Positions 207 to 49,487 of a DNA stretch of 64,000 nt are shown piece after piece. Below the pieces are notes generated by a model that saw only the letters and a list, made by a program, of their open reading frames with translations, made no database searches and was not told the DNA's origin. The translations under genes were made by a program, and so were the position numbers. Source of the DNA: Escherichia coli (GTDB lineage: Bacteria > Pseudomonadota > Gammaproteobacteria > Enterobacterales > Enterobacteriaceae). The first letter of the stretch is position 1, and every line of letters begins with the position of its first letter. The DNA is taken from the NCBI RefSeq assembly GCF_030013595.1, contig NZ_CP122768.1; one strand, given 5' to 3'.

Positions 207-1247
207 TCATTTATCGGAAGACGCCTGCCACAGATTCAGCTCGCCATCGGCGATATGCTGATCAATCTGCGCCAGCTCCTCGGTGCTAAATGTCAGATTA
301 TTCAGCGCCTGCACGTTCTCCTCAAGTTGCTCCGCGCGGCTGGCACCAATCAATACCGACGTCACGCGATCATCTTTCAGCAACCAGCTTAATGCCATTT
401 GCGCCATTGATTGTCCACGTTGCTGTGCCATTTCATGCAATAAGCGCAGGCTGTTGAGGTTGGCTTCGGTGAGCATTTTCGGCGTCAGACCACGAACTTT
501 ATTCCCTTCACGATGCATCCGTGAATCTTGCGGAATACCGTTGAGATATTTTCCGGTCAGCAATCCCTGAGCCAGAGGAGTAAAGGCAATGCAGCCCACG
601 CCGTTATTTTGCAGGGTATCCAGCAGGCCGCTTTTATCCACCCAGCGGTTCAGTAAATTGTACGAAGGTTGATGAATTAACAGCGGAATTTTCCACTCGC
701 GCAGTAACTCGACCATTTTTTGCGTCCGCTCTGGCGAGTAAGAGGAGATCCCGACATACAGCGCCTTACCGCTTTGTACCGCATGGGCCAGCGCAGAGGC
801 GGTTTCTTCCATCGGCGTATTTTCATCGACGCGATGAGAGTAAAAGATATCGACATACTCAAGCCCCATACGCTTCAGGCTTTGGTCGAGGCTGGCGAGC
901 AGGTATTTACGTGAACCGCCAGAGCCGTAAGGGCCGGGCCACATATCGTAGCCAGCCTTGGTAGAGATAATCAGTTCATCGCGATAAGCGGCAAAATCCT
1001 CCCGCAGCAGGCGACCAAAGTTCTCTTCTGCGCTTCCTGGAGGCGGCCCGTAATTGTTGGCTAAATCAAAGTGCGTAATGCCTAAATCAAACGCTTTACG
1101 CAGGATCGCTCGCTGTGATTCCAGCGCGTTAACGTGACCGAAATTGTGCCATAAACCGAGCGATAACGCGGGCAGGCGTAAACCGCTTTTTCCGCAATAG
1201 CGGTACTGCATTTGCCCGTAACGCTCGGGATTCGCTAACCAGACCAT
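207..1247 (-). CDS. yghZ: Aldo-keto reductase (L-glyceraldehyde 3-phosphate reductase)
   Basis: 346-aa ORF with aldo-keto reductase hallmarks; size and synteny match YghZ/Gpr. Confidence 0.85.
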   Translation of the reverse strand: MVWLANPERYGQMQYRYCGKSGLRLPALSLGLWHNFGHVNALESQRAILRKAFDLGITHFDLANNYGPPPGSAEENFGRLLREDFAAYRDELIISTKAGYDMWPGPYGSGGSRKYLLASLDQSLKRMGLEYVDIFYSHRVDENTPMEETASALAHAVQSGKALYVGISSYSPERTQKMVELLREWKIPLLIHQPSYNLLNRWVDKSGLLDTLQNNGVGCIAFTPLAQGLLTGKYLNGIPQDSRMHREGNKVRGLTPKMLTEANLNSLRLLHEMAQQRGQSMAQMALSWLLKDDRVTSVLIGASRAEQLEENVQALNNLTFSTEELAQIDQHIADGELNLWQASSDK

Positions 1248-1403
1248 GACCTCTCCTTTCCACCGTTCAATTTCGAAACAATGTTTCTAGTTTAGCGATT
1301 CATCAGCGCGTATCCCGTAGTCTGGCTCACAGAGTGACGAAAAACTGGGCAAAAACACGTGCTTATGCTTTGCTTAAAAAAACACCAATTGAGGAGTGCA
1401 ACG

Positions 1404-2291
1404 ATGCCGCGTCTGACCGCTAAAGATTTCCCACAAGAGTTGCTGGATTACTACGACTATTACGCTCACGGGAAAATTTCGAAACGTGAGTTCCTCAACC
1501 TTGCGGCGAAGTATGCGGTAGGCGGGATGACGGCATTAGCGTTGTTTGATTTGCTCAAGCCAAATTATGCGCTGGCGACTCAGGTAGAGTTTACCGACCC
1601 GGAAATTGTTGCTGAGTACATCACGTATTCTTCACCAAATGGTCACGGCGAGGTGCGGGGTTATCTGGTGAAGCCCGCAAAGATGAGCGGCAAAACGCCA
1701 GCCGTAGTGGTGGTGCATGAGAATCGTGGACTGAATCCGTATATCGAAGATGTGGCACGGCGAGTGGCGAAGGCGGGGTATATCGCCCTGGCTCCTGACG
1801 GCTTAAGTTCCGTTGGAGGTTATCCGGGTAATGATGATAAAGGTCGTGAGCTGCAACAGCAGGTTGATCCAACCAAACTGATGAATGATTTCTTTGCCGC
1901 AATTGAGTTTATGCAACGCTATCCGCAAGCGACAGGCAAAGTGGGTATTACCGGATTTTGCTATGGCGGTGGCGTATCGAACGCGGCGGCTGTCGCGTAT
2001 CCGGAACTGGCCTGCGCGGTGCCGTTTTATGGTCGACAGGCACCCACCGCCGATGTGGCGAAGATTGAAGCGCCTTTACTACTCCACTACGCGGAACTGG
2101 ACACCCGAATCAACGAGGGCTGGCCTGCTTACGAGGCGGCGTTGAAAGCCAATAATAAGGTCTATGAGGCGTATATCTATCCGGGAGTTAATCACGGATT
2201 CCATAATGATTCCACGCCCCGTTATGACAAATCTGCCGCCGATCTTGCCTGGCAAAGGACGCTGAAATGGTTCGATAAATATCTCTCCTGA
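1404..2291 (+). CDS. yghX: Dienelactone hydrolase family protein (intact here)
   Basis: ORF 1359-2291; preferred start ATG 1404 preceded by GAGGAG at 1391-1396; alpha/beta hydrolase pattern with GFCYGG nucleophile elbow; synteny with yghX. Confidence 0.75.
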   Translation: MPRLTAKDFPQELLDYYDYYAHGKISKREFLNLAAKYAVGGMTALALFDLLKPNYALATQVEFTDPEIVAEYITYSSPNGHGEVRGYLVKPAKMSGKTPAVVVVHENRGLNPYIEDVARRVAKAGYIALAPDGLSSVGGYPGNDDKGRELQQQVDPTKLMNDFFAAIEFMQRYPQATGKVGITGFCYGGGVSNAAAVAYPELACAVPFYGRQAPTADVAKIEAPLLLHYAELDTRINEGWPAYEAALKANNKVYEAYIYPGVNHGFHNDSTPRYDKSAADLAWQRTLKWFDKYLS

Positions 2292-2409
2292 TAGGTTTAT
2301 CTCTTACGGGATTACGTCTTAAACAAGCATGAAAAAATAGCGTGCGCAAAAGTCGTTCTTTGCCTAAAATATCGCTATATATGACAATATATAGCGAATG
2401 AGGTGAACG

Positions 2410-2697
2410 ATGAATAACCATTTTGGTAAAGGCTTAATGGCGGGATTAAAAGCAACGCATGCCGACAGTGCGGTTAATGTGACAAAATACTGTGCCGATT
2501 ATAAACGCGGTTTTGTATTAGGCTACTCACACCGGATGTACGAAAAGACCGGAGATCGCCAGCTTAGCGCCTGGGAAGCGGGTATTCTGACGCGCCGCTA
2601 TGGACTGGATAAAGAGATGGTAATGGATTTCTTTCGTGAGAATAATTCCTGTTCTACGTTGCGCTTTTTTATGGCCGGTTATCGCCTCGAAAATTGA
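2410..2697 (+). CDS. yghW: Small conserved protein YghW
   Basis: 95-aa ORF between yghX and hybO, matching the size and position of K-12 yghW. Confidence 0.55.
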
Positions 2698-9431: not shown

Positions 9432-9545
9432 TGATTAGCTTTCGTAGGCCAGATAAGACGCGACAGCGTCGCATCAGGCCTTGTGCACGATTGCCGGATG
9501 CGGCGCCTTATCCGGCCTGGATGGGGTGCTGCGACGAACACCAAC
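9431..9545. repeat. REP (repetitive extragenic palindromic) element cluster downstream of hybG
   Basis: Imperfect palindromes of the gccggatgcggcg / cgcatcaggc type between convergent hybG and yghU. Confidence 0.6.
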
Positions 9546-16732: not shown

Positions 16733-18082
16733 TTGGCGGGTCTTAACATCAAACATTGGTTTGCAGATGGCGCGTTTCGCACCATTATTCGCAATAGCGC
16801 CTGGTTAGGCTCCAGTAATGTCGTGAGCGCCTTGCTGGGTCTGTTGGCGCTCTCGTGTGCCGGTAAAGGGATGACGCCCGCCATGTTTGGCGTACTGGTG
16901 ATTGTGCAATCGTACGCCAAGTCGATCAGCGATTTTATTAAGTTTCAGACATGGCAGTTGGTGGTGCAGTACGGAACGCCAGCCTTGACCAACAATAATC
17001 CGCAGCAATTTCGCAATGTCGTCTCATTTTCCTTCTCGCTGGATATCGTCAGCGGCGCGGTGGCGATTGTCGGCGGCATTGCCTTACTGCCATTCCTTTC
17101 CCATTCATTAGGTCTGGATGACCAAAGCTTTTGGCTGGCGGCGCTGTATTGCACGCTCATTCCTTCAATGGCTTCCTCCACGCCGACCGGCATTCTGCGT
17201 GCGGTAGATCGCTTCGATCTAATTGCTGTACAGCAGGCGACGAAACCTTTTCTGCGCGCAGCGGGGAGCGTCGTAGCTTGGTATTTTGACTTTGGTTTTG
17301 CGGGTTTTGTTATTGCCTGGTACGTGTCGAATCTGGTTGGCGGCACCATGTACTGGTGGTTTGCCGCGCGCGAATTACGCCGCAGAAATATCCATAACGC
17401 GTTCAAATTGAATCTGTTTGAGTCTGCCCGACACATTAAAGGCGCGTGGAGTTTTGTCTGGTCAACCAACATTGCCCACTCCATCTGGTCGGCACGTAAC
17501 TCGTGCAGCACAGTGTTGGTGGGGATCGTGTTAGGACCCGCTGCCGCCGGGTTATTTAAAATCGCCATGACATTCTTCGACGCCGCCGGAACGCCAGCGG
17601 GTTTACTGGGTAAAAGTTTTTACCCAGAGGTGATGCGTTTAGATCCGCGCACCACCAGACCGTGGTTGTTAGGCGTGAAGTCCGGTTTACTGGCGGGCGG
17701 AATCGGTATTCTGGTGGCGCTCGCGGTGTTGATCGTCGGCAAGCCGCTCATTTCGCTGGTGTTTGGCGTTAAGTATCTCGAAGCGTATGACCTGATTCAG
17801 GTGATGCTGGGCGCAATTGTGATCTCGATGCTGGGCTTCCCACAGGAGTCATTGCTATTGATGGCGGGAAAACAGCGCGCTTTTCTCGTGGCGCAAACCA
17901 TCGCCTCAATCGGCTACATCGTATTGCTGTTCATGTTCTGTCATCTGTTTGGCGTGCTGGGGGCTGCATTTGCTTACTTCGGTGGGCAATGTCTGGATGT
18001 GGTGTTCTCGCTAATTCCGACCTTAAAGGCATTTTTTCAGCGCCATTCCTTGCTTTATAACGCAGCCGGAGAGAAATCCTGA
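16733..18082 (+). CDS. yghQ: Multi-span inner membrane protein, MOP/Wzx-like flippase family (start uncertain)
   Basis: 449-aa hydrophobic ORF; stop TGA overlaps the next ATG (ATGATG at 18079-18084); synteny with yghQ. Confidence 0.7.
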   Translation: MAGLNIKHWFADGAFRTIIRNSAWLGSSNVVSALLGLLALSCAGKGMTPAMFGVLVIVQSYAKSISDFIKFQTWQLVVQYGTPALTNNNPQQFRNVVSFSFSLDIVSGAVAIVGGIALLPFLSHSLGLDDQSFWLAALYCTLIPSMASSTPTGILRAVDRFDLIAVQQATKPFLRAAGSVVAWYFDFGFAGFVIAWYVSNLVGGTMYWWFAARELRRRNIHNAFKLNLFESARHIKGAWSFVWSTNIAHSIWSARNSCSTVLVGIVLGPAAAGLFKIAMTFFDAAGTPAGLLGKSFYPEVMRLDPRTTRPWLLGVKSGLLAGGIGILVALAVLIVGKPLISLVFGVKYLEAYDLIQVMLGAIVISMLGFPQESLLLMAGKQRAFLVAQTIASIGYIVLLFMFCHLFGVLGAAFAYFGGQCLDVVFSLIPTLKAFFQRHSLLYNAAGEKS

Positions 18083-18918
18083 TGATGAGAAAATATTTCC
18101 CGCTTGAGGCGAGCGAGCGTCTATTTGTTGCGATTGAAGAAGATGATGTCGTTGATGCACAGGTCAGTTTGCCGCCGACTATCGCACTAAGTTGTACCAC
18201 CGAAATCATCCATGATAATTACGCGTTATGCCTGAAATTCTGGCTGGATGGTGTTAATCGTCAGGAGCTACTGCGTTTAATCCGCAAACAGGCGAAAGGC
18301 GATGAGCTGACGACAGACGAGCGCAAAAAGTATAAATACATGCGAGCGCGCTACAAGCATCTGCGCTTTGCGCAACGGCTGTATTTAAAGAAGCATCAGG
18401 CCGGATTTTTATTCGGCAAAACGACCGTTTTTTTGGGGCGTTTTCAGGACGGCTTTCGTAACGGTAAGAAAAATATTGTGTCGTATTACGGCAACCTGTT
18501 ACGGGTTTATTTAAGCTCTCCGGTCTGGTCGTTGGTGAACTATTCATTACGCCATAGCCAGTTAGAAAGCGTAAGCGGTTTTATTGCCTATCGGCAAAAG
18601 CAAATGCATACCCTGAAAGAGATAATTGCCAAACCGCGACTAACTGGCAGGGAATTTCATGATGTGCGAAAAATCATCAGCCAGCAGGTTTCTTATTACG
18701 ACACCCTAAGATCGCTTGATCCTGAAAATAAAGAGGCGTTACAGATTTCCCGCTTCCTCGCCGCCATTAATGGCCTGATGGGGGATAAACACGACGACAT
18801 GGTGGCGGATGATATGGAAAACCGCCAGTCGTATGATGCACCGATGGCGCTGGATAGCGATATTCGTCAGCGCTTAGAACTGCTGATTTCGCGTTTCCCA
18901 CTATATCCGGAGCAATAA
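18082..18918 (+). CDS. Hypothetical cytoplasmic protein (278 aa), translationally coupled to yghQ
   Basis: Long ORF with start overlapping the yghQ stop and stop overlapping the next start (TAATG); basic and charged, no signal peptide seen. Confidence 0.55.
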   Translation: MMRKYFPLEASERLFVAIEEDDVVDAQVSLPPTIALSCTTEIIHDNYALCLKFWLDGVNRQELLRLIRKQAKGDELTTDERKKYKYMRARYKHLRFAQRLYLKKHQAGFLFGKTTVFLGRFQDGFRNGKKNIVSYYGNLLRVYLSSPVWSLVNYSLRHSQLESVSGFIAYRQKQMHTLKEIIAKPRLTGREFHDVRKIISQQVSYYDTLRSLDPENKEALQISRFLAAINGLMGDKHDDMVADDMENRQSYDAPMALDSDIRQRLELLISRFPLYPEQ

Positions 18919-19478
18919 TGCCATCTCGTTGGATTTTCGCTCTGATCATCGCACTCTTAGCGCCAGGCGCGGCGGCACACAATTTCGTCACTGGCAAAAC
19001 GGTTACCCCTGTTTATATCCAGGAAGGTGGTGAGCTGCTTCTGAATAGCGATGACGAAATTCACTACCAAAAGTGGAACAGCACACAATTGGCGGGAAAA
19101 GTCCGCATTATTCAGTATATCGCCGGGCGTAAGTCGGCGAAGAAAAAGAACTCACTGTTAATTAAAGCGGTTGAAGCGGCAAACTTTCCACAGGATCGTT
19201 TTCAGCCCACCACCATTGTGAACACCGATGATGCCATCTTTGGTACTGGCTATTTTGTCGTTGGCAAAATCGAAAAAAATAAACGCCGCTATCCGTGGGC
19301 GCAATTCGTTATTGACGGCAATGGACAGGGACGTGTTGCTTGGCGGTTGCCGGAGCAGAGTTCAACCATTCTGGTGCTGAATAAAGCCGGGCAAATTCAG
19401 TGGGCAAAGGACGGCAGCCTGACGCCGGAAGAGGTAGATCATGTCATTGCGCTGGCGCAGAAGCTGATCAATGAATAA
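18918..19478 (+). CDS. Hypothetical secreted/periplasmic protein (186 aa)
   Basis: N-terminal signal peptide MPSRWIFALIIALLAPGAAAHNF (AxA cleavage-type site, no lipobox Cys). Confidence 0.55.
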   Translation: MPSRWIFALIIALLAPGAAAHNFVTGKTVTPVYIQEGGELLLNSDDEIHYQKWNSTQLAGKVRIIQYIAGRKSAKKKNSLLIKAVEAANFPQDRFQPTTIVNTDDAIFGTGYFVVGKIEKNKRRYPWAQFVIDGNGQGRVAWRLPEQSSTILVLNKAGQIQWAKDGSLTPEEVDHVIALAQKLINE

Positions 19479-19508
19479 AAAACTCAAAGGATTGAGGGCA
19501 TTAGTGGG

Positions 19509-20579
19509 ATGAAGCTGGTTGAACACTACATCATGCGTGGTACGCGCCGTCTGGTGCTGATTATCGTCGGTTTTCTGATCTTTATTTTCGCCAGCTACTC
19601 CGCACAGCGTTATCTGACCGAAGCGGCAAATGGGACATTAGCTCTTGATGTTGTGCTGGATATTGTTTTCTACAAGGTGCTGATTGCACTGGAGATGTTG
19701 TTACCTGTTGGACTGTATGTGTCAGTTGGCGTGACGCTAGGGCAGATGTATACCGACTCGGAAATTACCGCTATTTCTGCGGCGGGGGGGAGTCCGGGAC
19801 GCTTGTACAAAGCCGTTCTTTATCTGGCGATACCGCTAAGTATTTTTGTCACCCTTCTGTCGATGTATGGTCGGCCGTGGGCTTATGCGCAGATTTATCA
19901 ACTGGAGCAACAGTCGCAGTCGGAGCTGGATGTTCGCCAGTTGCGGGCAAAGAAATTTAACACTAACGATAACGGACGAATGATCCTTTCGCAGACGGTT
20001 GATCAGGATAATAATCGCCTGACTGACGTGCTGATTTATACTTCTACTGCCAATCGAACCCGTATTTTCCGCGCCCGTTCGGTTGATGTGGTTGACCCAT
20101 CACCCGAGAAACCGACCGTTATGTTGCACAACGGCACTGCCTATCTTCTCGATCATCAGGGGCGTGACGACAACGAACAGATCTACCGTCATCTGCAATT
20201 ACATCTGAATCCGCTGGATCAAAGCCCTAACGTCAAACGCAAAGCGAAATCGGTCACGGAGCTGGCGCGCTCCGTCTTTCCAGCCGATCATGCCGAACTG
20301 CAATGGCGACAAAGCCGTGGCCTGACAGCATTGTTGATGGCGCTGCTGGCCATTTCATTAAGTCGGGTAAAACCGCGGCAAGGGCGATTTTCAACATTAT
20401 TGCCACTGACGTTGCTGTTTATTGCCATTTTTTATGGCGGCGACGTCTGCCGTACGCTGGTGGCTAACGGCGCGATTCCCCTCATTCCTGGTTTGTGGTT
20501 AGTACCCGGACTCATGCTAATGGGCCTGCTGATGCTGGTCGCACGCGACTTCTCTTTGCTGCAGAAATTTTCCCGATGA
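19509..20579 (+). CDS. LptF-like permease (YjgP/YjgQ family) paralog
   Basis: 356 aa; membrane topology and YTDSEITAISAAG segment resemble the LptF/LptG family. Confidence 0.7.
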   Translation: MKLVEHYIMRGTRRLVLIIVGFLIFIFASYSAQRYLTEAANGTLALDVVLDIVFYKVLIALEMLLPVGLYVSVGVTLGQMYTDSEITAISAAGGSPGRLYKAVLYLAIPLSIFVTLLSMYGRPWAYAQIYQLEQQSQSELDVRQLRAKKFNTNDNGRMILSQTVDQDNNRLTDVLIYTSTANRTRIFRARSVDVVDPSPEKPTVMLHNGTAYLLDHQGRDDNEQIYRHLQLHLNPLDQSPNVKRKAKSVTELARSVFPADHAELQWRQSRGLTALLMALLAISLSRVKPRQGRFSTLLPLTLLFIAIFYGGDVCRTLVANGAIPLIPGLWLVPGLMLMGLLMLVARDFSLLQKFSR

Positions 20580-21655
20580 ATGTTTTCAGTCGCTATTTAA
20601 TCCGTCATCTCTTTCTCGGTTTTGCCGCCGCCGCAGGGCTATTGCTGCCGCTTTTTACCACCTTCAACCTGATTAACGAACTGGATGATGTCAGCCCGGG
20701 TGGTTATCGCTGGACTCAGGCGGTGCTGGTGGTGCTGATGACCTTACCGCGCACACTGGTCGAACTTTCGCCGTTTATCGCATTATTGGGAGGGATTGTT
20801 GGCCTGGGGCAGTTATCGAAAAACAGTGAGCTTACCGCCATTCGCAGCACGGGGTTTTCTATCTTCCGTATTGCACTAGTGGCGCTGGTTGCCGGGATAT
20901 TTTGGACTGTTTCGTTAGGCGCGATAGATGAGTGGGTGGCGTCGCCATTGCAGCAACAGGCGCTGCAAATCAAATCGACTGCCACCGCGTTGGGGGAGGA
21001 CGATGACATTACCGGCAATATGCTTTGGGCCAGGCGCGGTAATGAATTTGTGACGGTGAAATCGCTGAACGAGCAGGGCCAGCCTGTGGGCGTGGAGATA
21101 TTTCATTATCGCGACGATCTCTCGCTCGAATCCTACATTTTTGCACGCAGTGCCTCCATTGAAGACGACAAAACGTGGATCCTGCATGGTGTGAATCATA
21201 AAAAATGGTTGAATGGCAAAGAAACGCTGGAAACATCAGATAATCTTGCCTGGCAATCGGCCTTCACCAGTATGAATCTTGAAGAGTTATCGATGCCGGG
21301 AAATACTTTTTCTGTCCGTCAACTTAATCATTACATCCATTATTTGCAGGAAACTGGGCAACCCAGCAGCGAATACCGCCTTGCACTGTGGGAAAAACTG
21401 GGACAACCCATCCTGACTCTGGCGATGATTTTGCTGGCTGTGCCGTTTACCTTTAGTGCCCCGCGTTCGCCTGGGATGGGTAGCCGTCTCGCTGTAGGCG
21501 TCATCGTGGGCTTACTTACCTGGATCAGCTATCAAATCATGGTCAATCTGGGATTGCTATTTGCGTTGAGCGCACCTGTTACCGCGCTCGGTTTACCGGT
21601 AGCGTTTGTGCTGGTGGCGTTGAGCCTGGTGTATTGGTATGACAGACAACATTAA
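20576..21655 (+). CDS. LptG-like permease (YjgP/YjgQ family) paralog
   Basis: Start ATG 20576 overlapping upstream stop (ATGA); 359 aa; N-terminal MNVFSRYLIRHLF typical of LptF/G permeases. Confidence 0.7.
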   Translation: MNVFSRYLIRHLFLGFAAAAGLLLPLFTTFNLINELDDVSPGGYRWTQAVLVVLMTLPRTLVELSPFIALLGGIVGLGQLSKNSELTAIRSTGFSIFRIALVALVAGIFWTVSLGAIDEWVASPLQQQALQIKSTATALGEDDDITGNMLWARRGNEFVTVKSLNEQGQPVGVEIFHYRDDLSLESYIFARSASIEDDKTWILHGVNHKKWLNGKETLETSDNLAWQSAFTSMNLEELSMPGNTFSVRQLNHYIHYLQETGQPSSEYRLALWEKLGQPILTLAMILLAVPFTFSAPRSPGMGSRLAVGVIVGLLTWISYQIMVNLGLLFALSAPVTALGLPVAFVLVALSLVYWYDRQH

Positions 21656-21656
21656 A

Positions 21657-21683
21657 CCCGCCGTGGCGCAACACCACAGCGGG
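21657..21683. terminator. Hairpin between convergent operons (possible bidirectional terminator)
   Basis: cccgccgtgg ... ccacagcggg near-perfect inverted repeat in the 34-nt gap between the LptG-like stop and the oxoamine synthase stop. Confidence 0.4.
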
Positions 21684-21689
21684 CTCACA

Positions 21690-22862
21690 TTACTGCTTCA
21701 GAGTAGCGAACGCTTGAATGATGGCATCAATTTGCTCACGACTGTGGGCAGCGTTTACGCTACAGCGCAGCAGCGTGATGCCTGCAGGCGCGGCAGGTGG
21801 CAGGATAAGATTCACATAAACGCCCAGCGAAATAAGCTCGCGCCAGATGCGTAAACCTTCCTCTTTCGAACCGATTATTACTGGCACTACCGGGCTAATA
21901 TGTGAACTTAACTCATAACCCAGTTTTTGCAGACCGTCATACAGATGGTTGGCATTATCCATCAGCTTTTGCCGCAACTCTGGTTGTGTAGCAATGGTTC
22001 TTAACGACGAGCGCACGGTCGCAATGCAGGACGGAGAAGGAGAGGCGGTAAAAATATACGGGCGGCTGCCGTAGCGCAGCACTTCCATCGCTTCCGAACC
22101 GACAGCAAAACCGCCAATCGAGGCCAGACTTTTACTGAAAGTACCAACGATAATATCCACATCATCTTCAACGCCAACGGCTTCAGCCAGTCCGCGCCCC
22201 GTTGCGCCTAACACGCCAAACGAATGCGCTTCATCGACAATCAAATAACCACCGAGACGACGTTTGATATCAACAATTTCCGCCAGCGGCGCAACGTCAC
22301 CGAGCATACTGTAGATGCCTTCAACGATGATAATCGCCTCTTTTGCCCGTTCACCGAGGCGAACCATGCGCCGTTCCAGATCTTTAGCATCGTTATGGCG
22401 GAAACGAATAATTTCCGCGCCACCGAGAGAACAGGCGTCATAAATACTGGCGTGGCTGTCGGCATCCAGTAACACCACGGCGTTATGGTCGGCAAGTGCG
22501 CTGATGACGCCTAAATTAGCGGTATAACCGGTTGAAAAAACGATAGCGGTAGGGCGATTAAAAAACTCGGCGATCTCTTTCTCTAACGCCAGATGCGGCG
22601 CATAACTGCCGTTTGCCATACGAGAACCGGTGGTGCCGGTGCCTTGGGCCGCTAACGCTGCCTGACCTTCGGCGATGGCATCATGATTAAAGGTTAAACC
22701 GAGATAATTATTGGTCCCGGCCAGAATCACTTTTTTATTGCCGATCCGACCTTCGGTGGCGGAATACACTTCATCAATACAGGTGCCAAACGGTGTTAAC
22801 CCGTTGTCACTAAATTGCAGTCGCTCGCCAGCAAGGCGCGCATATTTATCGTATAGCCCCAT
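21690..22862 (-). CDS. PLP-dependent alpha-oxoamine synthase, serine palmitoyltransferase-like
   Basis: 390 aa; class I/II aminotransferase fold; DEAHSFG and GTFSKSL (PLP-lysine) motifs. Confidence 0.8.
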   Translation of the reverse strand: MGLYDKYARLAGERLQFSDNGLTPFGTCIDEVYSATEGRIGNKKVILAGTNNYLGLTFNHDAIAEGQAALAAQGTGTTGSRMANGSYAPHLALEKEIAEFFNRPTAIVFSTGYTANLGVISALADHNAVVLLDADSHASIYDACSLGGAEIIRFRHNDAKDLERRMVRLGERAKEAIIIVEGIYSMLGDVAPLAEIVDIKRRLGGYLIVDEAHSFGVLGATGRGLAEAVGVEDDVDIIVGTFSKSLASIGGFAVGSEAMEVLRYGSRPYIFTASPSPSCIATVRSSLRTIATQPELRQKLMDNANHLYDGLQKLGYELSSHISPVVPVIIGSKEEGLRIWRELISLGVYVNLILPPAAPAGITLLRCSVNAAHSREQIDAIIQAFATLKQ

Positions 22863-23110
22863 TATTTATTCTCCAGCCATGGAAGTAGTGTTTCCATTAA
22901 TTGCGCAGGGGTTTTGACATCCAGCAGAATATTAATAGGAATGGAAATATCGAATCTGTCTTCCAGCATCATTAAGAGATCCATCACTTTGATCGACTCC
23001 AGGCCAAGATCGTTGACGAGATCGCTGTCGGACTTAATTTCCACACCGTTTTCGACCAAATCCTGTAAACAGGAAAGGATGTAATCCATTACTATTTCAC
23101 GATTTACCAT
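22862..23110 (-). CDS. Acyl carrier protein
   Basis: 82 aa, acidic, with DLGLESIKVMDL phosphopantetheine-attachment-type serine motif. Confidence 0.75.
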   Translation of the reverse strand: MVNREIVMDYILSCLQDLVENGVEIKSDSDLVNDLGLESIKVMDLLMMLEDRFDISIPINILLDVKTPAQLMETLLPWLENK

Positions 23111-23141
23111 AGAAACGTTAACACACCTTTAAACAAGACAA

Positions 23142-24056
23142 TCAAAATAGCCCGTTGCGTAATGCGTGTTCCAGGCTAATCCCGGGAAACCAATTAATAT
23201 CTTCAGAAATACGGTTATTACTTGCCGACCAGTCGGCATGAGTTAATTCACGGATTTTCGAACGAGTCAGCATCGGTTCTTTACCCGCCAGACGGCTCAA
23301 CGCGGTACTGATATCCGCAAGGCAGGTGAGTAGCGGCAGAGGAATACCGACCATCCGCACGGAACCACAGCGGACATCGGCAATAAGCTGTTGGACACGT
23401 TGCCAGTCATAGCCTCCGGCGACGCCATCGCATAATTCATAGGTTTGCGTCTGTACAGTTTCGGCGCTTAACCACTGCCCCACGGCTTGCGCGAAATCGG
23501 TGACGTGCAGGAAAGAGAGCTGTGTATCTGGCGCACCAAGTCGTGGCAGTAGGCCGCGCAGCATCCAGTCAAACAGCGGTTTTAACTCTTTATCGCCGGG
23601 ACCATACACGGCTGTCGGGCGAAAAATGCCCAGCGTAATTTCGTCAGCCATTGCGGTCAGTCGTTGTTCGGCGACGTGTTTGGAATTTGCGTACCAGGAG
23701 AGTTCGGGATGGCGCGCCGCCAGCGAAGAGATAAACAGAAAACGTTGGCAAAAGCCGCTCTCTTTTGCCGCTTGCATCAGTCGCAGGCTGCCGTCAACGT
23801 TACAGCGGGTAAAAATCTCTTCTTTGTGCCCGCGCACTTGCCCGGCGCAATGGACCACCGCGCTGGCTCCGGCAACCAGTTCGCTAAGTGAATGAGTATC
23901 TTCCAGAGAACCGCGCACCCAGATGAGATTGTCATTGACGTGAGCGCGGGCAGTACGCGTCAATGCGCGAACGTGAAAGCCGCGGGCGAGCAGGTTATCG
24001 ATAATATATTTACCGATAAACCCGGTAGCGCCCGTCACCGCGACAGTTTGATTCAT
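23142..24056 (-). CDS. NAD(P)-dependent epimerase/dehydratase-family reductase
   Basis: 304 aa; N-terminal Rossmann motif VTGATGFIGKYI. Confidence 0.75.
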   Translation of the reverse strand: MNQTVAVTGATGFIGKYIIDNLLARGFHVRALTRTARAHVNDNLIWVRGSLEDTHSLSELVAGASAVVHCAGQVRGHKEEIFTRCNVDGSLRLMQAAKESGFCQRFLFISSLAARHPELSWYANSKHVAEQRLTAMADEITLGIFRPTAVYGPGDKELKPLFDWMLRGLLPRLGAPDTQLSFLHVTDFAQAVGQWLSAETVQTQTYELCDGVAGGYDWQRVQQLIADVRCGSVRMVGIPLPLLTCLADISTALSRLAGKEPMLTRSKIRELTHADWSASNNRISEDINWFPGISLEHALRNGLF

Positions 24057-25804
24057 GCCAGGGATTCCTGCACATGAAGGCTTGCAGCATAAGCCTTCTG
24101 ATAACGTTTTTTCGCTTCCGCACGGGCAGGCTTGCCGGAGGACGTTCGGGGAATACTGTGGGGCGGCAACAGATCGATAGCCGCGGTCACGCCAAATTCG
24201 CTTTGGATCGGTGCTGCCAGCGCGTGGATAAGCTGCCCGCGACGTTCTTCATCGCTGATCCGACACTGGATCTGCAAAATGATTTTTTCCTGGGCGGTAA
24301 CAAAAGCAATCGCATCGCCAGAATGAATTTCCGGTTCCTGTTCCGCAATATATTCAATATCCTGCGGCCAGATATTACGGCCACGAATAATAATCAGATC
24401 TTTAATGCGCCCGGTGACATACAGATAACCGTCCAGCAGATAACCGAGGTCGCCGGTGTCTAACCAGCCCGTCGCGGCAATCTCGTCTTGTGAAATCTGG
24501 TCGCCAAAGTAACCGCTCATCAGGCTAGGGCCGGAGATGCAAATATGGCCTACCACACGTTCCGCGACAGGTATACCTGCTTCATTGCGGATTTCAATGC
24601 CATGTTCTGGCAACGCTTTACCGCAGTTGACGAAAGTCGATACGGCGCGTGTTTCAGCACCCGGCGCGACGGCTTTGCCCTGATATTCAAGGATGTCGCG
24701 ATCCACTTCGTTAACCACAACCCCGGAGGCTTCATCAGAGAAGCTGACAGCCAGCGCATTTTCTGCCAGTCCGTAGCACGGCATGAACGTTTTATCGTCA
24801 AAGTTAACCTGACGGAAACATTCAGCGAATTGATGGAGTTGTTCTGCGGAGATCGGCTCAGCACCAATACCAGCGACGCGCCAGCAGGATAGATCCAGTT
24901 CAGCGAGATCTTTTTCATTCACGCGGCGCTGGCACAATTCATAGCCAAACGGCGGCGCAACGGAAACGGTGCCGCGATTTTTACTGATCAATTTAAGCCA
25001 TTGCAGAGGACGCATGGCAAAATCCTGAGTGCGCAAATAATCTACTGAGAGCTGCGTGGCGACGGGGGTCAGGAGAAAGCCGACCAGTCCCATATCATGG
25101 TAGAAAGGCAGCCAGGAGACGCAGCGGTCGCCAGGGCGTAATTTAATGCCATCGTGGCTTATAGCACGTAGATTAGCCATCACTTCGCGATGGGTGATAA
25201 TGACGCCACGGGGAAAACGGGTGCTGCCGGAGGTGTACTGGAGGTAGGCGATATCGTTCGGAACTGGATGCTGGAGTGCAACATCGGCTTCCGGTAATGC
25301 CTTAAACCAGGCGTGGCTTAAAACATGTAATTCGGGGTTGTTGTTATGCGTCGCGGCATTGACCAGCGGTAACCACTCATCACCAGTGATAATGGCTGCG
25401 GGCTGGCAACTTGTCAGTAAACCCTGCAGTTTGGCGCTCCAGGAATCCCGCTGACCGACGCCCATTGGAATCGCCAACGGGACGGCGACTAAGCCGGCAT
25501 ACTGGCAGGAAAAAAAAGCCTCTACGAACCCGCTACTGGTTTCGGCAATCAGCGCCACGCGATCGCCTTTTTTCAGGTTCAGCGATAACAATCGCTTCGC
25601 ACCAGCTTCGGCACGCGCTTTTAACGTCTGATATTCCAGTTGATCTTCAAGTTGGCAACGTCTGTCATAAAAATTCATTCCGGCGCTACTCAGAGCGGCG
25701 TAGTCCAAAGCATCAACCAGCGTTGGAAAATCGGCATAGCGCATAGGTAGGGAATGCGTAAAGATTTTATTAGACATATACACCACGAAAAAATTGGATA
25801 TCAA
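24053..25804 (-). CDS. Fatty acyl-AMP ligase / acyl-ACP synthetase (AMP-binding family)
   Basis: 583 aa; AMP-binding motif YLQYTSGSTRFPRGV; start may be at a downstream Met. Confidence 0.8.
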   Translation of the reverse strand: MISNFFVVYMSNKIFTHSLPMRYADFPTLVDALDYAALSSAGMNFYDRRCQLEDQLEYQTLKARAEAGAKRLLSLNLKKGDRVALIAETSSGFVEAFFSCQYAGLVAVPLAIPMGVGQRDSWSAKLQGLLTSCQPAAIITGDEWLPLVNAATHNNNPELHVLSHAWFKALPEADVALQHPVPNDIAYLQYTSGSTRFPRGVIITHREVMANLRAISHDGIKLRPGDRCVSWLPFYHDMGLVGFLLTPVATQLSVDYLRTQDFAMRPLQWLKLISKNRGTVSVAPPFGYELCQRRVNEKDLAELDLSCWRVAGIGAEPISAEQLHQFAECFRQVNFDDKTFMPCYGLAENALAVSFSDEASGVVVNEVDRDILEYQGKAVAPGAETRAVSTFVNCGKALPEHGIEIRNEAGIPVAERVVGHICISGPSLMSGYFGDQISQDEIAATGWLDTGDLGYLLDGYLYVTGRIKDLIIIRGRNIWPQDIEYIAEQEPEIHSGDAIAFVTAQEKIILQIQCRISDEERRGQLIHALAAPIQSEFGVTAAIDLLPPHSIPRTSSGKPARAEAKKRYQKAYAASLHVQESLA

Positions 25805-26148
25805 AAATAAAATGACAATAATGCGGTGGATTATATAGGCATAAAAGATAAATGAGATAGTATTTTCATTAGTGTGAAAATGAACATTGATTTAAATAAT
25901 GAGTTTGAGTTTTTTTGTTTTTATTGTGAATGATATTTAATTTATGAATGTATTAAGAAGAAGCCTTGTCCGGTCGCCTTAAATCGACAAAAGGCATTGT
26001 GGCGCTTCTGTGTAGTCTCTGACCTTATCGTAATCATTAATAAATGCTATTTATTCGTCGTTTGTATTCATTGGGTTGATTATTAAGGTGCCGTTCGTTG
26101 CTGTTGCAACCTGTTTGTCACCGTTAATTATTTGTTACCCACAGAACT
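25805..26148. promoter_or_regulatory. AT-rich divergent promoter region between the lipid operon and yghO
   Basis: About 340 nt of strongly AT-rich non-coding DNA between divergent gene starts. Confidence 0.4.
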
Positions 26149-27291
26149 ATGGAATGCGATCTGCTGATGATTAAAATTGAAAAAGTAATTAATAAAAATG
26201 ACCTTAAGGCATTTATCGCTTTTCCGTCATCACTTTATCCCGACGATCCAAACTGGATACCCCCTTTATTCATTGAACGCAACGAGCATTTGTCTGCGAA
26301 AAATCCGGGGACGGACCATATCATCTGGCAGGCGTGGGTGGCAAAAAAAGCGGGGCAGATAGTCGGGCGTATTACCGCGCAAATAGATACCTTGCACCGC
26401 GAGCGTTACGGCAAAGATACCGGTCATTTCGGCATGATTGACGCCATTGATGATCCGCAGGTTTTTGCCGCGTTGTTTGGCGCAGCGGAAGCGTGGTTGA
26501 AGTCACAAGGTGCAAGTAAGATCAGCGGGCCTTTCAGCCTGAATATCAATCAGGAAAGCGGATTACTGATTGAAGGTTTTGACACACCACCCTGTGCGAT
26601 GATGCCACACGGCAAACCGTGGTATGCCGCGCATATTGAACAACTGGGTTATCACAAAGGCATTGATTTACTGGCGTGGTGGATGCAGCGAACCGATCTC
26701 ACGTTCTCTCCGGCGCTAAAAAAACTGATGGATCAGGTGCGCAAAAAGGTGACCATTCGCTGCATCAATCGCCAGCGGTTTGCCGAAGAGATGCAGATCC
26801 TGCGTGAGATTTTCAACTCCGGCTGGCAGCACAACTGGGGATTTGTGCCGTTTACCGAACATGAATTCGCGACCATGGGCGATCAACTTAAATATCTGGT
26901 GCCGGACGATATGATCTACATCGCTGAGATTGATTCTGCACCCTGCGCGTTTATTGTCGGCTTGCCAAACATCAACGAGGCGATTGCCGATCTGAACGGA
27001 TCGCTCTTTCCCTTCGGCTGGGCAAAATTGCTGTGGCGTTTAAAAGTCAGCGGTGTGCGAACTGCGCGAGTACCGCTGATGGGCGTGCGGGACGAGTATC
27101 TGTTTAGCCGCATCGGCCCGGTGATTGCGCTGTTATTGATTGAAGCCTTACGCGATCCGTTTGCCCGCCGGAAGATCGATGCGCTGGAGATGTCATGGAT
27201 CCTCGAAACCAATACAGGCATGAATAACATGCTGGAACGCATTGGGGCGGAGCCGTACAAGCGTTACCGATTGTATGAAAAGCAGATTTGA
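26149..27291 (+). CDS. yghO: Acetyltransferase-fold (GNAT-like) protein; putative N-acyltransferase (intact here)
   Basis: 380-aa ORF at the yghO position next to glcC; fold assignment from reading the translation, not searched. Confidence 0.6.
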   Translation: MECDLLMIKIEKVINKNDLKAFIAFPSSLYPDDPNWIPPLFIERNEHLSAKNPGTDHIIWQAWVAKKAGQIVGRITAQIDTLHRERYGKDTGHFGMIDAIDDPQVFAALFGAAEAWLKSQGASKISGPFSLNINQESGLLIEGFDTPPCAMMPHGKPWYAAHIEQLGYHKGIDLLAWWMQRTDLTFSPALKKLMDQVRKKVTIRCINRQRFAEEMQILREIFNSGWQHNWGFVPFTEHEFATMGDQLKYLVPDDMIYIAEIDSAPCAFIVGLPNINEAIADLNGSLFPFGWAKLLWRLKVSGVRTARVPLMGVRDEYLFSRIGPVIALLLIEALRDPFARRKIDALEMSWILETNTGMNNMLERIGAEPYKRYRLYEKQI

Positions 27292-44206: not shown

Positions 44207-44235
44207 CCGCATTTAATCCAGGAGAATCATTCATC

Positions 44236-46296
44236 GTGTTTTGGCGTGATATTACGTTGTCGGTCTGGCGTAAGAAGACAACTGGCCTCAAAACAAAAAA
44301 GCGTTTACTGCCGCTGGTGTTGGCAGCGGCATTATGCAGTTCACCGGTCTGGGCGGAAGAAGCCACTTTCACCGCCAATTTTAAAGATACCGACCTGAAA
44401 TCGTTCATCGAAACCGTCGGCGCTAACCTTAATAAAACCATCATTATGGGGCCGGGCGTACAGGGGAAAGTGAGTATTCGTACCATGACTCCGCTCAATG
44501 AACGCCAGTATTACCAGCTATTCCTTAACCTGCTGGAAGCACAGGGGTATGCCGTCGTACCGATGGAAAACGACGTGCTGAAGGTGGTGAAATCCAGCGC
44601 CGCGAAAGTCGAGCCACTGCCGCTGGTCGGTGAAGGCAGCGACAACTACGCGGGCGATGAAATGGTCACCAAAGTAGTGCCGGTACGTAATGTGTCGGTC
44701 CGCGAATTGGCACCGATTCTGCGCCAGATGATCGACAGCGCAGGCTCAGGCAACGTTGTTAATTACGATCCCTCCAACGTGATTATGCTCACCGGACGCG
44801 CCTCCGTTGTGGAGCGCCTGACGGAAGTGATCCAGCGTGTGGATCACGCGGGTAATCGCACTGAAGAGGTGATCCCGCTGGATAACGCCTCGGCTTCGGA
44901 AATCGCCCGCGTGCTGGAAAGCCTGACGAAAAACAGCGGCGAGAACCAGCCTGCGACGCTGAAATCTCAAATTGTCGCCGACGAACGCACCAACAGTGTG
45001 ATTGTCAGTGGTGACCCGGCCACGCGGGACAAAATGCGCCGCCTGATCCGTCGGCTGGACTCAGAAATGGAGCGCAGCGGCAACAGCCAGGTTTTCTATC
45101 TCAAATACAGCAAAGCGGAAGATCTGGTCGATGTGCTGAAGCAGGTCAGCGGCACGCTCACGGCGGCTAAAGAAGAGGCGGAAGGCACCGTCGGTAGCGG
45201 GCGTGAGGTTGTCTCCATCGCCGCCAGCAAACACAGTAATGCCCTGATTGTTACTGCGCCGCAGGACATCATGCAGTCGCTGCAAAGCGTGATTGAACAA
45301 CTGGATATTCGCCGTGCTCAGGTGCACGTCGAGGCGTTGATCGTGGAAGTTGCTGAAGGCAGCAATATCAACTTCGGCGTGCAGTGGGCGTCGAAAGATG
45401 CCGGATTAATGCAGTTTGCTAACGGTACGCAGATCCCTATTGGCACGCTGGGGGCAGCCATTTCTCAGGCGAAACCGCAGAAAGGCTCGACGGTAATCAG
45501 TGAAAACGGCGCTACCACCATAAATCCGGATACTAACGGCGATCTCTCCACGCTTGCTCAGCTACTTTCCGGCTTTAGCGGTACGGCGGTTGGCGTGGTG
45601 AAAGGTGACTGGATGGCGCTGGTACAGGCGGTCAAAAACGACTCCAGCTCGAACGTGCTCTCCACGCCGAGCATCACCACGCTGGACAACCAGGAAGCCT
45701 TCTTCATGGTGGGCCAGGATGTTCCGGTATTAACCGGCTCTACCGTTGGCTCCAATAACAGCAATCCTTTCAATACAGTAGAGAGGAAAAAAGTCGGCAT
45801 CATGCTGAAAGTCACGCCGCAGATTAACGAAGGAAACGCGGTACAGATGGTGATTGAGCAGGAAGTGTCGAAGGTGGAAGGACAGACCAGCCTCGACGTC
45901 GTGTTTGGTGAGCGCAAACTGAAGACCACCGTGCTGGCTAACGATGGCGAGCTGATTGTGCTTGGCGGCCTGATGGACGACCAGGCAGGAGAAAGCGTGG
46001 CGAAAGTGCCGCTGCTGGGCGATATCCCGTTGATTGGTAACCTGTTTAAATCGACGGCGGATAAAAAAGAAAAACGTAACCTGATGGTGTTTATCCGCCC
46101 GACCATTCTGCGTGACGGTATGGCGGCAGACGGCGTGTCGCAGCGCAAATATAACTACATGCGCGCCGAGCAGATCTATCGCGATGAGCAAGGCTTAAGC
46201 CTGATGCCGCACACCGCGCAGCCGGTACTGCCAGCGCAAAACCAGGCCTTACCGCCGGAAGTACGCGCATTCCTCAATGCCGGGAGAACGCGTTAA
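44236..46296 (+). CDS. gspD: Type II secretion system secretin D
   Basis: 686 aa; signal peptide; secretin C-terminal domain pattern. Confidence 0.9.
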
Positions 46297-47789
46297 TGGT
46301 GCCTGTAGCACAGGAAACCACCGCTAACACCGTGCGTCTGCCCTACAGTTTCAGCCGTCGGTTTAGCCTGGTGGCATGGTGCGAAGCGTCGCTGGAGATC
46401 CTCCACGTTCATCCGCTATCGCTCTCTGTTTTGCAGGAGCTGCAGCGGGGGCTGAACGCGCCCTTTACGCTGCGGCAAATCGACGAAGCCGAATTTGAAC
46501 AGCGGCTGAATGCGGTCTGGCAGCGGGACTCTTCCGAGGCCCGCCAGTTGATGGAAGATCTCGGTTCTGCTGAGGATTTTTTTACCCTCGCCGAAGAACT
46601 GCCGGAAACGGAAGATCTGCTGGAAAGCGACGACGACGCGCCAATCATCAAACTGATCAACGCTATGCTGGCAGAGGCGATTAAAGAAGGCGCTTCGGAT
46701 ATCCACATCGAGACATTTGAAAAGAGTCTGGTGATCCGTTTTCGCGTTGACGGCACATTACATGAAATGTTGCGCCCCGGTCGCAAGCTGGCCTCGCTGC
46801 TGGTCTCGCGTATCAAGGTGATGGCGCGGCTGGATATCGCCGAAAAGCGCGTACCGCAGGATGGACGTATTGCGCTGCTGCTGGGCGGTCGGGCGATTGA
46901 CGTGCGTGTCTCCACCATGCCATCCGCCTGGGGCGAGCGCGTGGTGCTGCGACTGCTGGACAAAAACCAGGCCCGCCTGACGCTGGAGCGTCTGGGGTTG
47001 AGCCATGAACTGACCGCGCAGTTGCGCCAGCTGTTACACAAACCGCACGGTATCTTTCTGGTTACGGGGCCGACGGGTTCCGGCAAAAGCACCACGCTGT
47101 ACGCCGGATTGCAGGAGCTGAACAACCACTCGCGTAACATTCTCACGGTTGAAGACCCCATCGAATACATGATTGAAGGGATCGGTCAGACGCAGGTTAA
47201 CACCCGCGTTGGGATGACCTTCGCCCGTGGCCTGCGCGCGATTTTGCGTCAGGACCCGGATGTGGTGATGGTCGGTGAAATCCGCGATACCGAAACCGCA
47301 GAAATCGCCGTTCAGGCTTCACTTACCGGACACCTGGTCCTTTCCACGCTGCATACCAACACAGCGGTGGGGGCGATCACACGTTTGCAGGATATGGGCG
47401 TGGAGCCTTTCCTGCTCTCTTCCAGTCTGACGGGCGTGATGGCGCAGCGACTGGTTCGCACGCTGTGCCCCGACTGCCGCCAGCCCGTGCCTGCCACCGA
47501 CGAAGAAAAACGCCTGCTGGGGATTACCGATGCGCGAACCGTCACTCTGTACCATCCGCAGGGCTGTCCCGCCTGTAATCACAAAGGCTTTCGCGGACGT
47601 ACCGCCATCCATGAGCTGATCGTGGTGGACGCCACATTGCGTGATTTGATCCACCGTCAGGCCGGGGAACTGGAGCTGGAACGTTATGTCCGGCAACACT
47701 CTACGGGTATCCGCAGCAACGGCATTGAGAAAGTGCTCGCCGGAGAAACCTCTCTCGATGAAGTTCTGCGGGTAACCATGGAGGCGTAA
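46296..47789 (+). CDS. gspE: Type II secretion ATPase E
   Basis: 497 aa; Walker [10 protein letters not shown]; C-terminal CxxC pairs. Confidence 0.95.
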
Positions 47790-49012
47790 TGGCACTGTTT
47801 TACTATCAGGCGCTGGAGCGTAATGGTCGCAAAACCAAAGGCATGATTGAGGCGGATTCCGCGCGTCATGCCCGCCAGTTGTTACGTGGTAAAGACCTCA
47901 TTCCCGTGCACATTGAAGCCCGGCTGAATGCTTCGTCAGGGGGAATGTTGCAGCGTCGGCGGCACGCACATCGTCGCGTGGCGGCGGCAGATCTGGCGCT
48001 GTTCACCCGCCAACTGGCAACGTTAGTACAGGCAGCAATGCCGCTGGAAACCTGCTTACAGGCGGTCAGTGAGCAAAGTGAAAAACTGCATGTAAAAAGC
48101 CTCGGAATGGCGCTGCGCAGCCGGATTCAGGAGGGTTACACCCTGTCGGACAGCCTGCGCGAACATCCCCGCGTCTTTGATTCTCTGTTTTGTTCGATGG
48201 TGGCTGCCGGAGAAAAATCCGGGCATCTCGACGTGGTGCTCAATCGCCTGGCGGATTACACCGAACAGCGCCAGCGCCTGAAATCACGTCTGTTGCAGGC
48301 CATGCTCTATCCGCTGGTATTGCTGGTGGTGGCAACGGGCGTGGTCACTATTTTGTTGACGGCGGTAGTGCCGAAAATCATCGAACAGTTTGATCATCTC
48401 GGACATGCGCTGCCCGCTTCCACCCGCGCGCTTATCGCCATGAGCGACGCGTTACAGGCCAGCGGCGTTTACTGGCTGGTAGGTTTGCTGGGACTTCTGG
48501 TGCTCGGGCAACGGCTACTCAAAAATCCTGCTATGCGACTGCGCTGGGATAAAACCGTGCTGCGCCTGCCCGTGACGGGGCGGGTTGCGCGCGGGCTGAA
48601 TACGGCGCGTTTTTCCCGCACTTTAAGCATCCTCACTGCCAGCAGTGTTCCGCTACTGGAAGGCATTCAGACCGCTGCCGCCGTGTCGGCAAATCGCTAT
48701 GTCGAGCAACAACTGCTGCTGGCGGCAGATCGCGTCCGCGAAGGAAGCAGTCTGCGCGCCGCGCTGGCGGAGCTTCGCCTGTTCCCGCCGATGATGCTGT
48801 ACATGATCGCCTCCGGCGAACAGAGCGGCGAGCTGGAAACCATGCTTGAACAGGCCGCAGTCAACCAGGAGCGGGAGTTTGATACCCAGGTGGGGCTGGC
48901 GTTAGGGCTGTTTGAACCGGCACTGGTGGTGATGATGGCGGGCGTGGTGCTGTTTATCGTCATCGCCATCCTTGAGCCGATGCTGCAACTGAACAATATG
49001 GTTGGAATGTAA
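47789..49012 (+). CDS. gspF: Type II secretion inner-membrane platform protein F
   Basis: 407 aa; GspF/PilC architecture. Confidence 0.9.
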   Translation: MALFYYQALERNGRKTKGMIEADSARHARQLLRGKDLIPVHIEARLNASSGGMLQRRRHAHRRVAAADLALFTRQLATLVQAAMPLETCLQAVSEQSEKLHVKSLGMALRSRIQEGYTLSDSLREHPRVFDSLFCSMVAAGEKSGHLDVVLNRLADYTEQRQRLKSRLLQAMLYPLVLLVVATGVVTILLTAVVPKIIEQFDHLGHALPASTRALIAMSDALQASGVYWLVGLLGLLVLGQRLLKNPAMRLRWDKTVLRLPVTGRVARGLNTARFSRTLSILTASSVPLLEGIQTAAAVSANRYVEQQLLLAADRVREGSSLRAALAELRLFPPMMLYMIASGEQSGELETMLEQAAVNQEREFDTQVGLALGLFEPALVVMMAGVVLFIVIAILEPMLQLNNMVGM

Positions 49013-49028
49013 TTTACGGAGTTATCAC

Positions 49029-49484: not shown

Positions 49485-49487
49485 TCA

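Follow-up and report, generated by a model that had tools for sequence, protein, structure and literature searches.

Whether the yghX gene in this stretch of Escherichia coli DNA is whole, and whether it represents the form from which the K-12 allele decayed, were asked here. The original prediction held that the dienelactone-hydrolase-family reading frame is uninterrupted over 295 codons behind a good Shine-Dalgarno sequence, that the K-12 orthologue is a frameshifted pseudogene, and that the form seen here is the ancestral functional one. In the window, i.e. the whole stretch of 64,000 nt that was analysed, the ORF, profile matches and RefSeq placed the coding sequence of yghX, a YghX family hydrolase, at 1404..2291 on the plus strand (888 nt, 295 codons plus TGA). 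The ORF list and translation displayed a frame running from the ATG at 1404 to the TGA at 2289-2291 without interruption, and a Shine-Dalgarno sequence, GAGGAG (1391..1396, plus strand), was read 7 nt before the ATG, so the predicted reading frame and ribosome-binding site were both borne out. In the mechanical ORF list a longer frame of yghX opens with a GTG at 1359, which was rejected as the start because no Shine-Dalgarno sequence precedes it and the RefSeq start is 1404; the latter is annotated on HCP5S3_I2 DNA, which is 100% identical over window positions 1250-2420 and encodes protein WP_001360974.1. The small protein YqhI, epitope-tagged on the K-12 chromosome, also begins at the ATG equivalent to 1404 of yghX (PMC6001520).

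The neighbours of yghX are gpr (L-glyceraldehyde 3-phosphate reductase; 207..1247, minus strand; assigned by the ORF and by RefSeq on near-identical DNA), which lies divergently upstream, and yghW (DUF2623; 2410..2697, plus strand; assigned by the ORF and annotation) downstream, with the hybOABCDEFG operon next. Simple scans found neither a consensus sigma-70 promoter upstream of yghX nor a plus-strand terminator after it.

Assignment to the YghX family and to the dienelactone hydrolase (DLH) family was upheld by one profile each: the NCBIfam model NF041440, "YghX family hydrolase", scored 586.3 bits (cutoff 460, E 9e-177), with its positions 1-292/292 matched by YghX residues 3-294, and Pfam DLH (PF01738) scored 164.7 bits (cutoff 21), with residues 84-294 matching model positions 1-217/217. 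A third model, Pfam PF23678 'YqhI-like', matched residues 1-36. Internal gaps were absent from a multiple alignment of nine orthologues with the window YghX. A cryptic frameshift was looked for and none was found, NF041440 being covered from 1 to 292 of 292 and the alignments to the orthologues and to PDB 4zv9 (residues 59-294) being gap-free.

K-12 carries a different allele. In RefSeq, yghX of K-12 MG1655 is an 885-nt pseudogene with the note "frameshifted", and it resides (under the old names yghX_1/yghX_2) between the same neighbours, gpr, yghW and hyb, in DNA that is 98% identical to the window. Pairwise alignment located two lesions, namely a 2-bp deletion removing TA of codon 37 (TAT; ORF nt 109-110, window 1512..1513, plus strand) and a 1-bp deletion removing one C of codon 157 (ACC; ORF nt 470, window 1873, plus strand); the window is intact at both sites, and the remaining differences between the two alleles amount to only 15 substitutions. 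Thus, by the RefSeq flag and the alignment alike, K-12 yghX is a frameshifted pseudogene as had been proposed, with the amendment that there are two frameshifts and not one, and that they are not private to K-12.

As 2 bp and 1 bp sum to 3 nt, the last 138 codons of K-12 yghX return to the original frame, and this arithmetic could be taken to mean that K-12 yghX is no real pseudogene but a sequencing artefact, or a gene read through by programmed frameshifting, or one that works as split polypeptides. The same lesions, however, recur in ~1,200-1,500 independently assembled genomes; the frame between the two sites contains many stops, so translation from the native ATG ends after 47 residues, and the product detected in K-12 is exactly this 47-aa stump; and the catalytic part is left with neither a start nor a leader of its own. 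We consider such a reading of the K-12 allele to have almost no chance of being right, and take K-12 yghX as a genuine pseudogene.

The 47-aa product of the K-12 frame, MPRLTAKDFPQELLDYYDYYAHGKISKREFLNLAAKCGRRDDGISVV, is identical letter for letter to the small protein YqhI of VanOrsdel et al. 2018 (PMC6001520). It shares the start codon and the first 36 codons with the window gene and continues with 11 out-of-frame codons, positions 2655-2798 of the K-12 locus (L001) corresponding to window 1404-1549, and it is only 47 aa long. This identity means that YqhI consists of the n-region and KR motif of the YghX leader plus 11 out-of-frame codons; being the stump of yghX, it also reveals that what Pfam PF23678 'YqhI-like' describes is the leader carried by full-length YghX. 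Tagging revealed YqhI in K-12, with yqhI tabulated between "yghX_2" and gpr (PMC6001520), and this detection demonstrates that the promoter, ribosome-binding site and start codon of yghX are active in K-12. A 2025 preprint lists yqhI among the small proteins induced by magnesium starvation and reports a deletion phenotype, a defect in low magnesium, that was not complemented by YqhI (PMC11429745). Neither PMC6001520 nor PMC11429745 describes YqhI as a pseudogene remnant, and in the literature searched the only link between YqhI and yghX was the PMC6001520 table naming them as neighbours, while databases may already state it.

To see how the two deletions are distributed, a census was carried out on 5,426 complete E. 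coli genomes, in 5,425 of which the yghX locus was found. The queries were short 50-mers, for which a 28-nt seed is available only where the allele matches, and the scope of the counts is the two K-12-type deletion sites, other lesions in yghX falling outside them. Among the 5,426 genomes, the intact codon-37 query matched 3,490 and the 2-bp deletion query 1,251, while the intact codon-157 query matched 4,221 and the 1-bp deletion query 1,199. The single-site 50-mers left ~680 genomes unclassified at codon 37, which seemed to clash with the length classes in a spread sample; this conflict was resolved by concatenated two-site queries and five example genomes. The concatenated double-deletion query found either piece in 1,505 genomes and both pieces in 941, and ~425 genomes are still unclassified at codon 37 owing to nearby SNPs that block the seed match. 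Taken together, the 2-bp deletion occurs in ~1,505/5,426 genomes (~28%), both deletions in ~1,199 (~22%) and the 2-bp deletion alone in ~310, leaving ~72% of complete E. coli genomes with neither deletion at the two sites surveyed.

The order of the two events could be read from their combinations. An intact codon 37 together with a deleted codon 157 was encountered in 0/4,689 genomes (concatenated query, both pieces). The 1-bp deletion without an exact codon-37 match was seen in 258 genomes, and both of those sampled (W4 and CAVP814) turned out to lack the 2 bp as well and to have a G114A SNP by which the seed match was broken. Since no genome matching the intact codon-37 50-mer had the 1-bp deletion, and the 2-bp loss was present in each of the two unclassified genomes sampled, the 2-bp deletion came first. 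Three genomes sampled from the ~310 with the 2-bp deletion alone (ST540, 1450 and BKQ37E) have an intact codon 157, and the gene is annotated as frameshifted in 3/3. The decay of yghX is therefore nested and two-step: the 2-bp deletion in codon 37 severs the leader from the catalytic domain, and the 1-bp loss in codon 157 followed later in most of the affected strains. The G114A change (loci L010 and L011, i.e. W4 and CAVP814), 4 nt past the 2-bp deletion, marks a pseudogene sub-lineage of ~258 genomes.

Recombination has also left its trace at the locus. In strain EcN_Sk (locus L009), yghX has both K-12-type deletions plus 20 substitutions confined to ~95 nt (nt 352-447), a dense patch suggesting that recombination brought in a short tract from a divergent donor when the gene was already inactive. 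Such exchange raises the question of whether the intact allele of the window was regained by recombination into a deletion-bearing background and is not ancestral at all. We regard this as very improbable: the differences between the window and K-12 (97.8% identity over 17.8 kb) are mostly synonymous and are spread along the whole of yghX and into the flanking DNA, with no patch, and most genomes as well as the outgroups have the intact form.

That the intact allele is the older one was evident outside the species. Orthologues 92% identical to YghX in Citrobacter koseri, and 85-89% identical in Pseudescherichia, Enterobacter, Kosakonia, Silvania and Leclercia, are collinear proteins of 294-298 aa, gap-free across codons 37 and 157. 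These full-length outgroup proteins, the absence of the two lesions from ~72% of genomes and the nesting of the deletions together establish the intact form as ancestral. K-12 yghX repaired by 3 nt is free of stops and differs from the window by just 2 non-synonymous changes, indicating that the pseudogene is young. Among five intact E. coli alleles, pairwise Nei-Gojobori comparison gave dN/dS of 0.04-0.13, and so the intact gene is under purifying selection. The data support the window yghX being an intact ancestral allele, with intact as the majority state. Of the predicted 'ancestral functional form', the ancestral part was thus supported by collinear outgroups, the ~72% majority and the nested lesions; the functional part is inferred from the dN/dS of 0.04-0.13, the Cys-Asp-His triad and the fold.

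An intact frame could nevertheless be useless, namely a silent or decaying gene that in this lineage has not yet acquired its lesion. In favour of this, yghX has no known function or phenotype, its loss from a large clade of E. coli came at no obvious cost, and K-12 engineers treat the locus as a neutral integration site (PMC7677707). Such a gene would hardly be expected to show dN/dS of 0.04-0.13 among intact alleles, a triad invariant in orthologues, a constant protein length at 85-92% identity across genera and a start site that is translated in K-12 (as YqhI), and we judge this view unlikely by a wide distance; the reading of yghX as a gene maintained by selection is retained below.

Residues C186, D233 and H264 of YghX align to positions 123, 171 and 202 of the Pseudomonas dienelactone hydrolase ClcD, the triad numbers of which we take partly from established knowledge. 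The codon of Cys186, the predicted nucleophile in the motif G-F-C-Y-G-G, lies at 1959..1961 (plus strand) and aligns to position 123 of PDB 4u2c, a Pseudomonas dienelactone hydrolase with C123S (Cys to Ser at position 123). By alignment to the same structure, the triad acid Asp233 is encoded at 2100..2102 and the triad base His264 at 2193..2195 (both plus strand). In a sample of 32 diverse family representatives (36-68% identity), Cys186 was conserved in 29/32, Asp233 in 32/32 and His264 in 29/32, and in the nine-orthologue alignment the triad was invariant among enterobacterial YghX proteins. The G-x-C-x-G elbow is present as G184-F-C186-Y-G188.

Structural comparisons agreed with these assignments. 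The AlphaFold2 model of the window YghX (pLDDT 96, pTM 0.93) superposed on 4zv9 at 0.5 A (Foldseek TM 0.98) and on the Pseudomonas dienelactone hydrolase structures 1din/1zi6 with TM of 0.83-0.85. The crystal structure 4zv9, released in 2015 as an 'uncharacterized protein', is the YghX orthologue of E. coli O157:H7 Sakai and is ~98% identical over residues 59-294, differing by T59A, V69F, S76P, S135N and Y229F (window to 4zv9); its construct omits the 56-58-residue leader and starts at about residue 57. ClcD itself (1din, 1zi6 and 4u2c; carboxymethylenebutenolidase, EC 3.1.1.45) resembles YghX with Foldseek TM of 0.81-0.85 and rmsd of 2.2-3.0 A and has Cys-Asp-His at equivalent positions, but the sequences are only ~25% identical. 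ClcD is moreover cytoplasmic, without a leader, and takes part in chlorocatechol degradation as the product of a clc operon, whereas YghX has a 58-residue Tat-like leader and is encoded outside any aromatic-degradation cluster. The next closest solved structure is the putative dienelactone hydrolase 3f67 of Klebsiella pneumoniae (E 8.5e-24, 28% identity), which shares the G-F-C-x-G-G nucleophile elbow but belongs to a paralogous branch, its deposited chain having no YqhI-like leader. Judged from sequence, model and the solved orthologue, YghX has a DLH-type alpha/beta-hydrolase core at residues ~59-295 with a conserved Cys186-Asp233-His264 triad. Neither family membership nor the name would establish dienelactone hydrolysis (EC 3.1.1.45) by YghX, and the literature searched contained no dienelactone hydrolase assay of YghX. 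A review recalls an old proposal from structural similarity, in which yghX is a candidate poly-3-hydroxybutyrate polymerase by virtue of the GxCxG motif (PMC3709699); it is not adopted here.

What precedes the core is a leader of 58 residues: M-P-R-L-T-A-K-D-F-P-Q-E-L-L-D-Y-Y-D-Y-Y-A-H-G-K-I-S-K-R-E-F-L-N-L-A-A-K-Y-A-V-G-G-M-T-A-L-A-L-F-D-L-L-K-P-N-Y-A-L-A. From motif counts, hydropathy and the start of the 4zv9 construct, codons 1-58 (1404..1577, plus strand) were annotated as a putative twin-arginine-type (Tat) signal peptide. It comprises a polar n-region (PF23678, codons 1-36), the motif S-K-R-E-F-L at 26-31, a hydrophobic stretch at ~38-51, K52, P53, and A-L-A at 56-58. The h-region (38-51) reached a Kyte-Doolittle peak of 1.9, compared with 2.0 for HybO, and as in Tat signals it is followed by A-x-A. 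The Tat signal of HybO, encoded 600 bp downstream, likewise combines a polar n-region, a basic pair followed by x-F-(L/M), a weakly hydrophobic core and A-x-A, and its hydropathy profile resembles that of the YghX leader. Unlike Tat signals such as that of HybO, YghX has K-R for R-R, and its n-region, at ~25 residues, is unusually long and conserved throughout the family. The motif S-K-R-E-F-L-N is to be set against the Tat motif S/T-R-R-x-F-L-K, and K-R occurs in all enterobacterial orthologues; K-R is tolerated in Tat signals, as established mutational work demonstrates.

The family consensus reads R-R-x-F-(L/M/I), with arginine at positions 27 and 28 in 28/32 and 30/32 representatives and F30 in 28/32, and it is followed by a variable uncharged stretch and then A-x-A (A58 in 24/32). 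An RR motif within the first 75 residues was present in 59/80 near-full-length representatives. Five of the 80 combine RR, a hydrophobic stretch and a lipobox Cys with long Pro/Thr/Ala linkers before the catalytic domain, so that in these relatives, with their Tat-lipoprotein signals, the leader cannot belong to the fold; some others have plain short Tat signals with no n-region extension. The Pfam TAT_signal model matched neither YghX nor the RR-bearing relatives, so motif counts on alignments were used. In the literature searched, dienelactone hydrolases and Tat were co-mentioned only incidentally, and experiments on the localisation, cleavage or substrate of YghX were not found. On these motifs, export of YghX by Tat appears somewhat more probable than retention.

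The opposing view is that residues 1-58 form a permanent helical domain, a lid or an oligomerisation element, of a cytoplasmic enzyme, with the RR/KR-x-F-L motif being incidental in the enterobacterial branch. AlphaFold2 placed helices at 11-21, 27-37, 44-51 and 55-58 of the leader with pLDDT of 89-95, and such values over the leader, unusual for a cleaved signal peptide, could reflect packing on the core. These three or four helices in a model of pTM 0.93, an n-region conserved enough to form the Pfam family PF23678, KR in place of RR in every enterobacterial orthologue and the failure of the TAT_signal HMM to match all speak for a fixed domain. Against it stand the RR-x-F-L motif in 59/80 representatives, with a lipobox Cys and low-complexity linkers in 5 and plain short Tat signals in others; A-x-A is conserved in the leader although the sequence of its hydrophobic stretch is variable; and the crystallised 4zv9 construct still folds as a complete domain with the leader removed. 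A fixed helical domain is accordingly a real but doubtful possibility, and export by Tat is kept as the working reading.

If exported, YghX would fold in the cytoplasm and then cross to the periplasm via Tat, its signal peptide would be cleaved after Ala58, and in the periplasm the enzyme would hydrolyse an ester, lactone or thioester via a covalent Cys186 intermediate. More tentatively, and with the odds well against it, the conserved 36-residue 'YqhI-like' segment, which AlphaFold2 placed with confidence, might serve as a functional part of an extended Tat leader common to this hydrolase family, e.g. for docking of a proofreading chaperone or as a pro-segment packed against the enzyme before export, with K-12 YqhI as its orphaned stump; were this so, the way YqhI is regulated would reflect that of a complete periplasmic cysteine hydrolase made by wild E. 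coli strains like this one. For the explanation as a whole, namely an intact ancestral yghX that encodes a Cys-triad DLH enzyme with a Tat-like leader and that decayed in K-12 by two deletions, we estimate a probability of roughly 0.9.

Both the intactness of yghX and the pseudogene status of the K-12 allele are correct, ordinary and already known: annotations of the intact gene run to thousands of genomes, the O157:H7 orthologue has been crystallised and its structure solved, Swiss-Prot uses the name "Putative hydrolase fragment YghX" (as quoted in PMC12366299), and metabolic engineers routinely insert cassettes at "the pseudogene yghX locus" (PMC7677707). The gene is one more case of K-12 being unrepresentative of E. 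coli, which is of little general importance. Some practical consequences can still be drawn. Insertion at yghX, a "neutral" site in K-12/W3110, would in ~72% of strains destroy a conserved gene under purifying selection; YqhI has been studied as a stress-induced small protein, and its phenotypes are to be read as those of a yghX remnant; and the two nested deletions are handy lineage markers in the K-12-related clade.

The remainder of the window differs from K-12 at several places. An 8.4-kb segment at 17802-26188 is missing from K-12, where IS5 sits between truncated yghQ and yghO. By the annotation of the near-identical strain HCP5S3_I2, it encodes the rest of an LPS-biosynthesis-like gene, a hypothetical protein, a YtfJ-family protein, lptF/lptG paralogues, spt (serine palmitoyltransferase), an acyl carrier protein, a reductase-like NAD epimerase/dehydratase and a fatty acyl-AMP ligase, and from this gene content it looks like a cluster for lipid or amino-lipid synthesis and export. 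Nothing on a cluster of yghQ with serine palmitoyltransferase was found in the literature searched. Further on, the 8.0 kb at 44210-52205 belong to the second type II secretion system and run from gspD into the 5' part of gspL; they are intact here and lie downstream of sslE, pppA, gspS2 and gspC; K-12 is deleted for this stretch and keeps only gspC and a truncated gspL.

Collinearity with both K-12 and HCP5S3_I2 ends at 53878, and the sequence there, TGGTGCCGGACTCGGAATCGAA (53857-53878), imperfectly repeats the 3' end of tRNA-Phe (pheV); ARAGORN found no tRNA in the window. Past 53878 the genes, all on the minus strand, encode DUF4942 and DUF5983 proteins, the CbtA toxin, the CbeA antitoxin, RadC, an antirestriction protein, a DUF932 protein, a 973-aa AIDA/antigen-43-like autotransporter and a GTPase. 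By its sequence, the last 10 kb (to 64000) is assigned as the distal end of a genomic island inserted at pheV, which continues past the window.

Downstream of yghX, two perfectly inverted 11-bp arms separated by 4 nt were noticed at 2372-2397, reading TCGCTATATAT GACA ATATATAGCGA and lying 13 nt before yghW begins. This inverted repeat overlaps part of the constitutive promoter that Shimada et al. 2014 list for yghW (TTGCCT-17-GACAAT, PMC3946193), namely the promoter's spacer and -10 element; it is identical in K-12 and looks like a candidate operator. Three RNA families scored above the Rfam gathering score, all on the minus strand: the REP-derived naRNA4 at 9447-9517, adjoining an indel relative to HCP5S3_I2 near 9506; the sRNA C0719 at 34755-34976, between glcB and glcA; and 'IS102 RNA' at 61891-62127, just upstream of the antigen-43-like gene.
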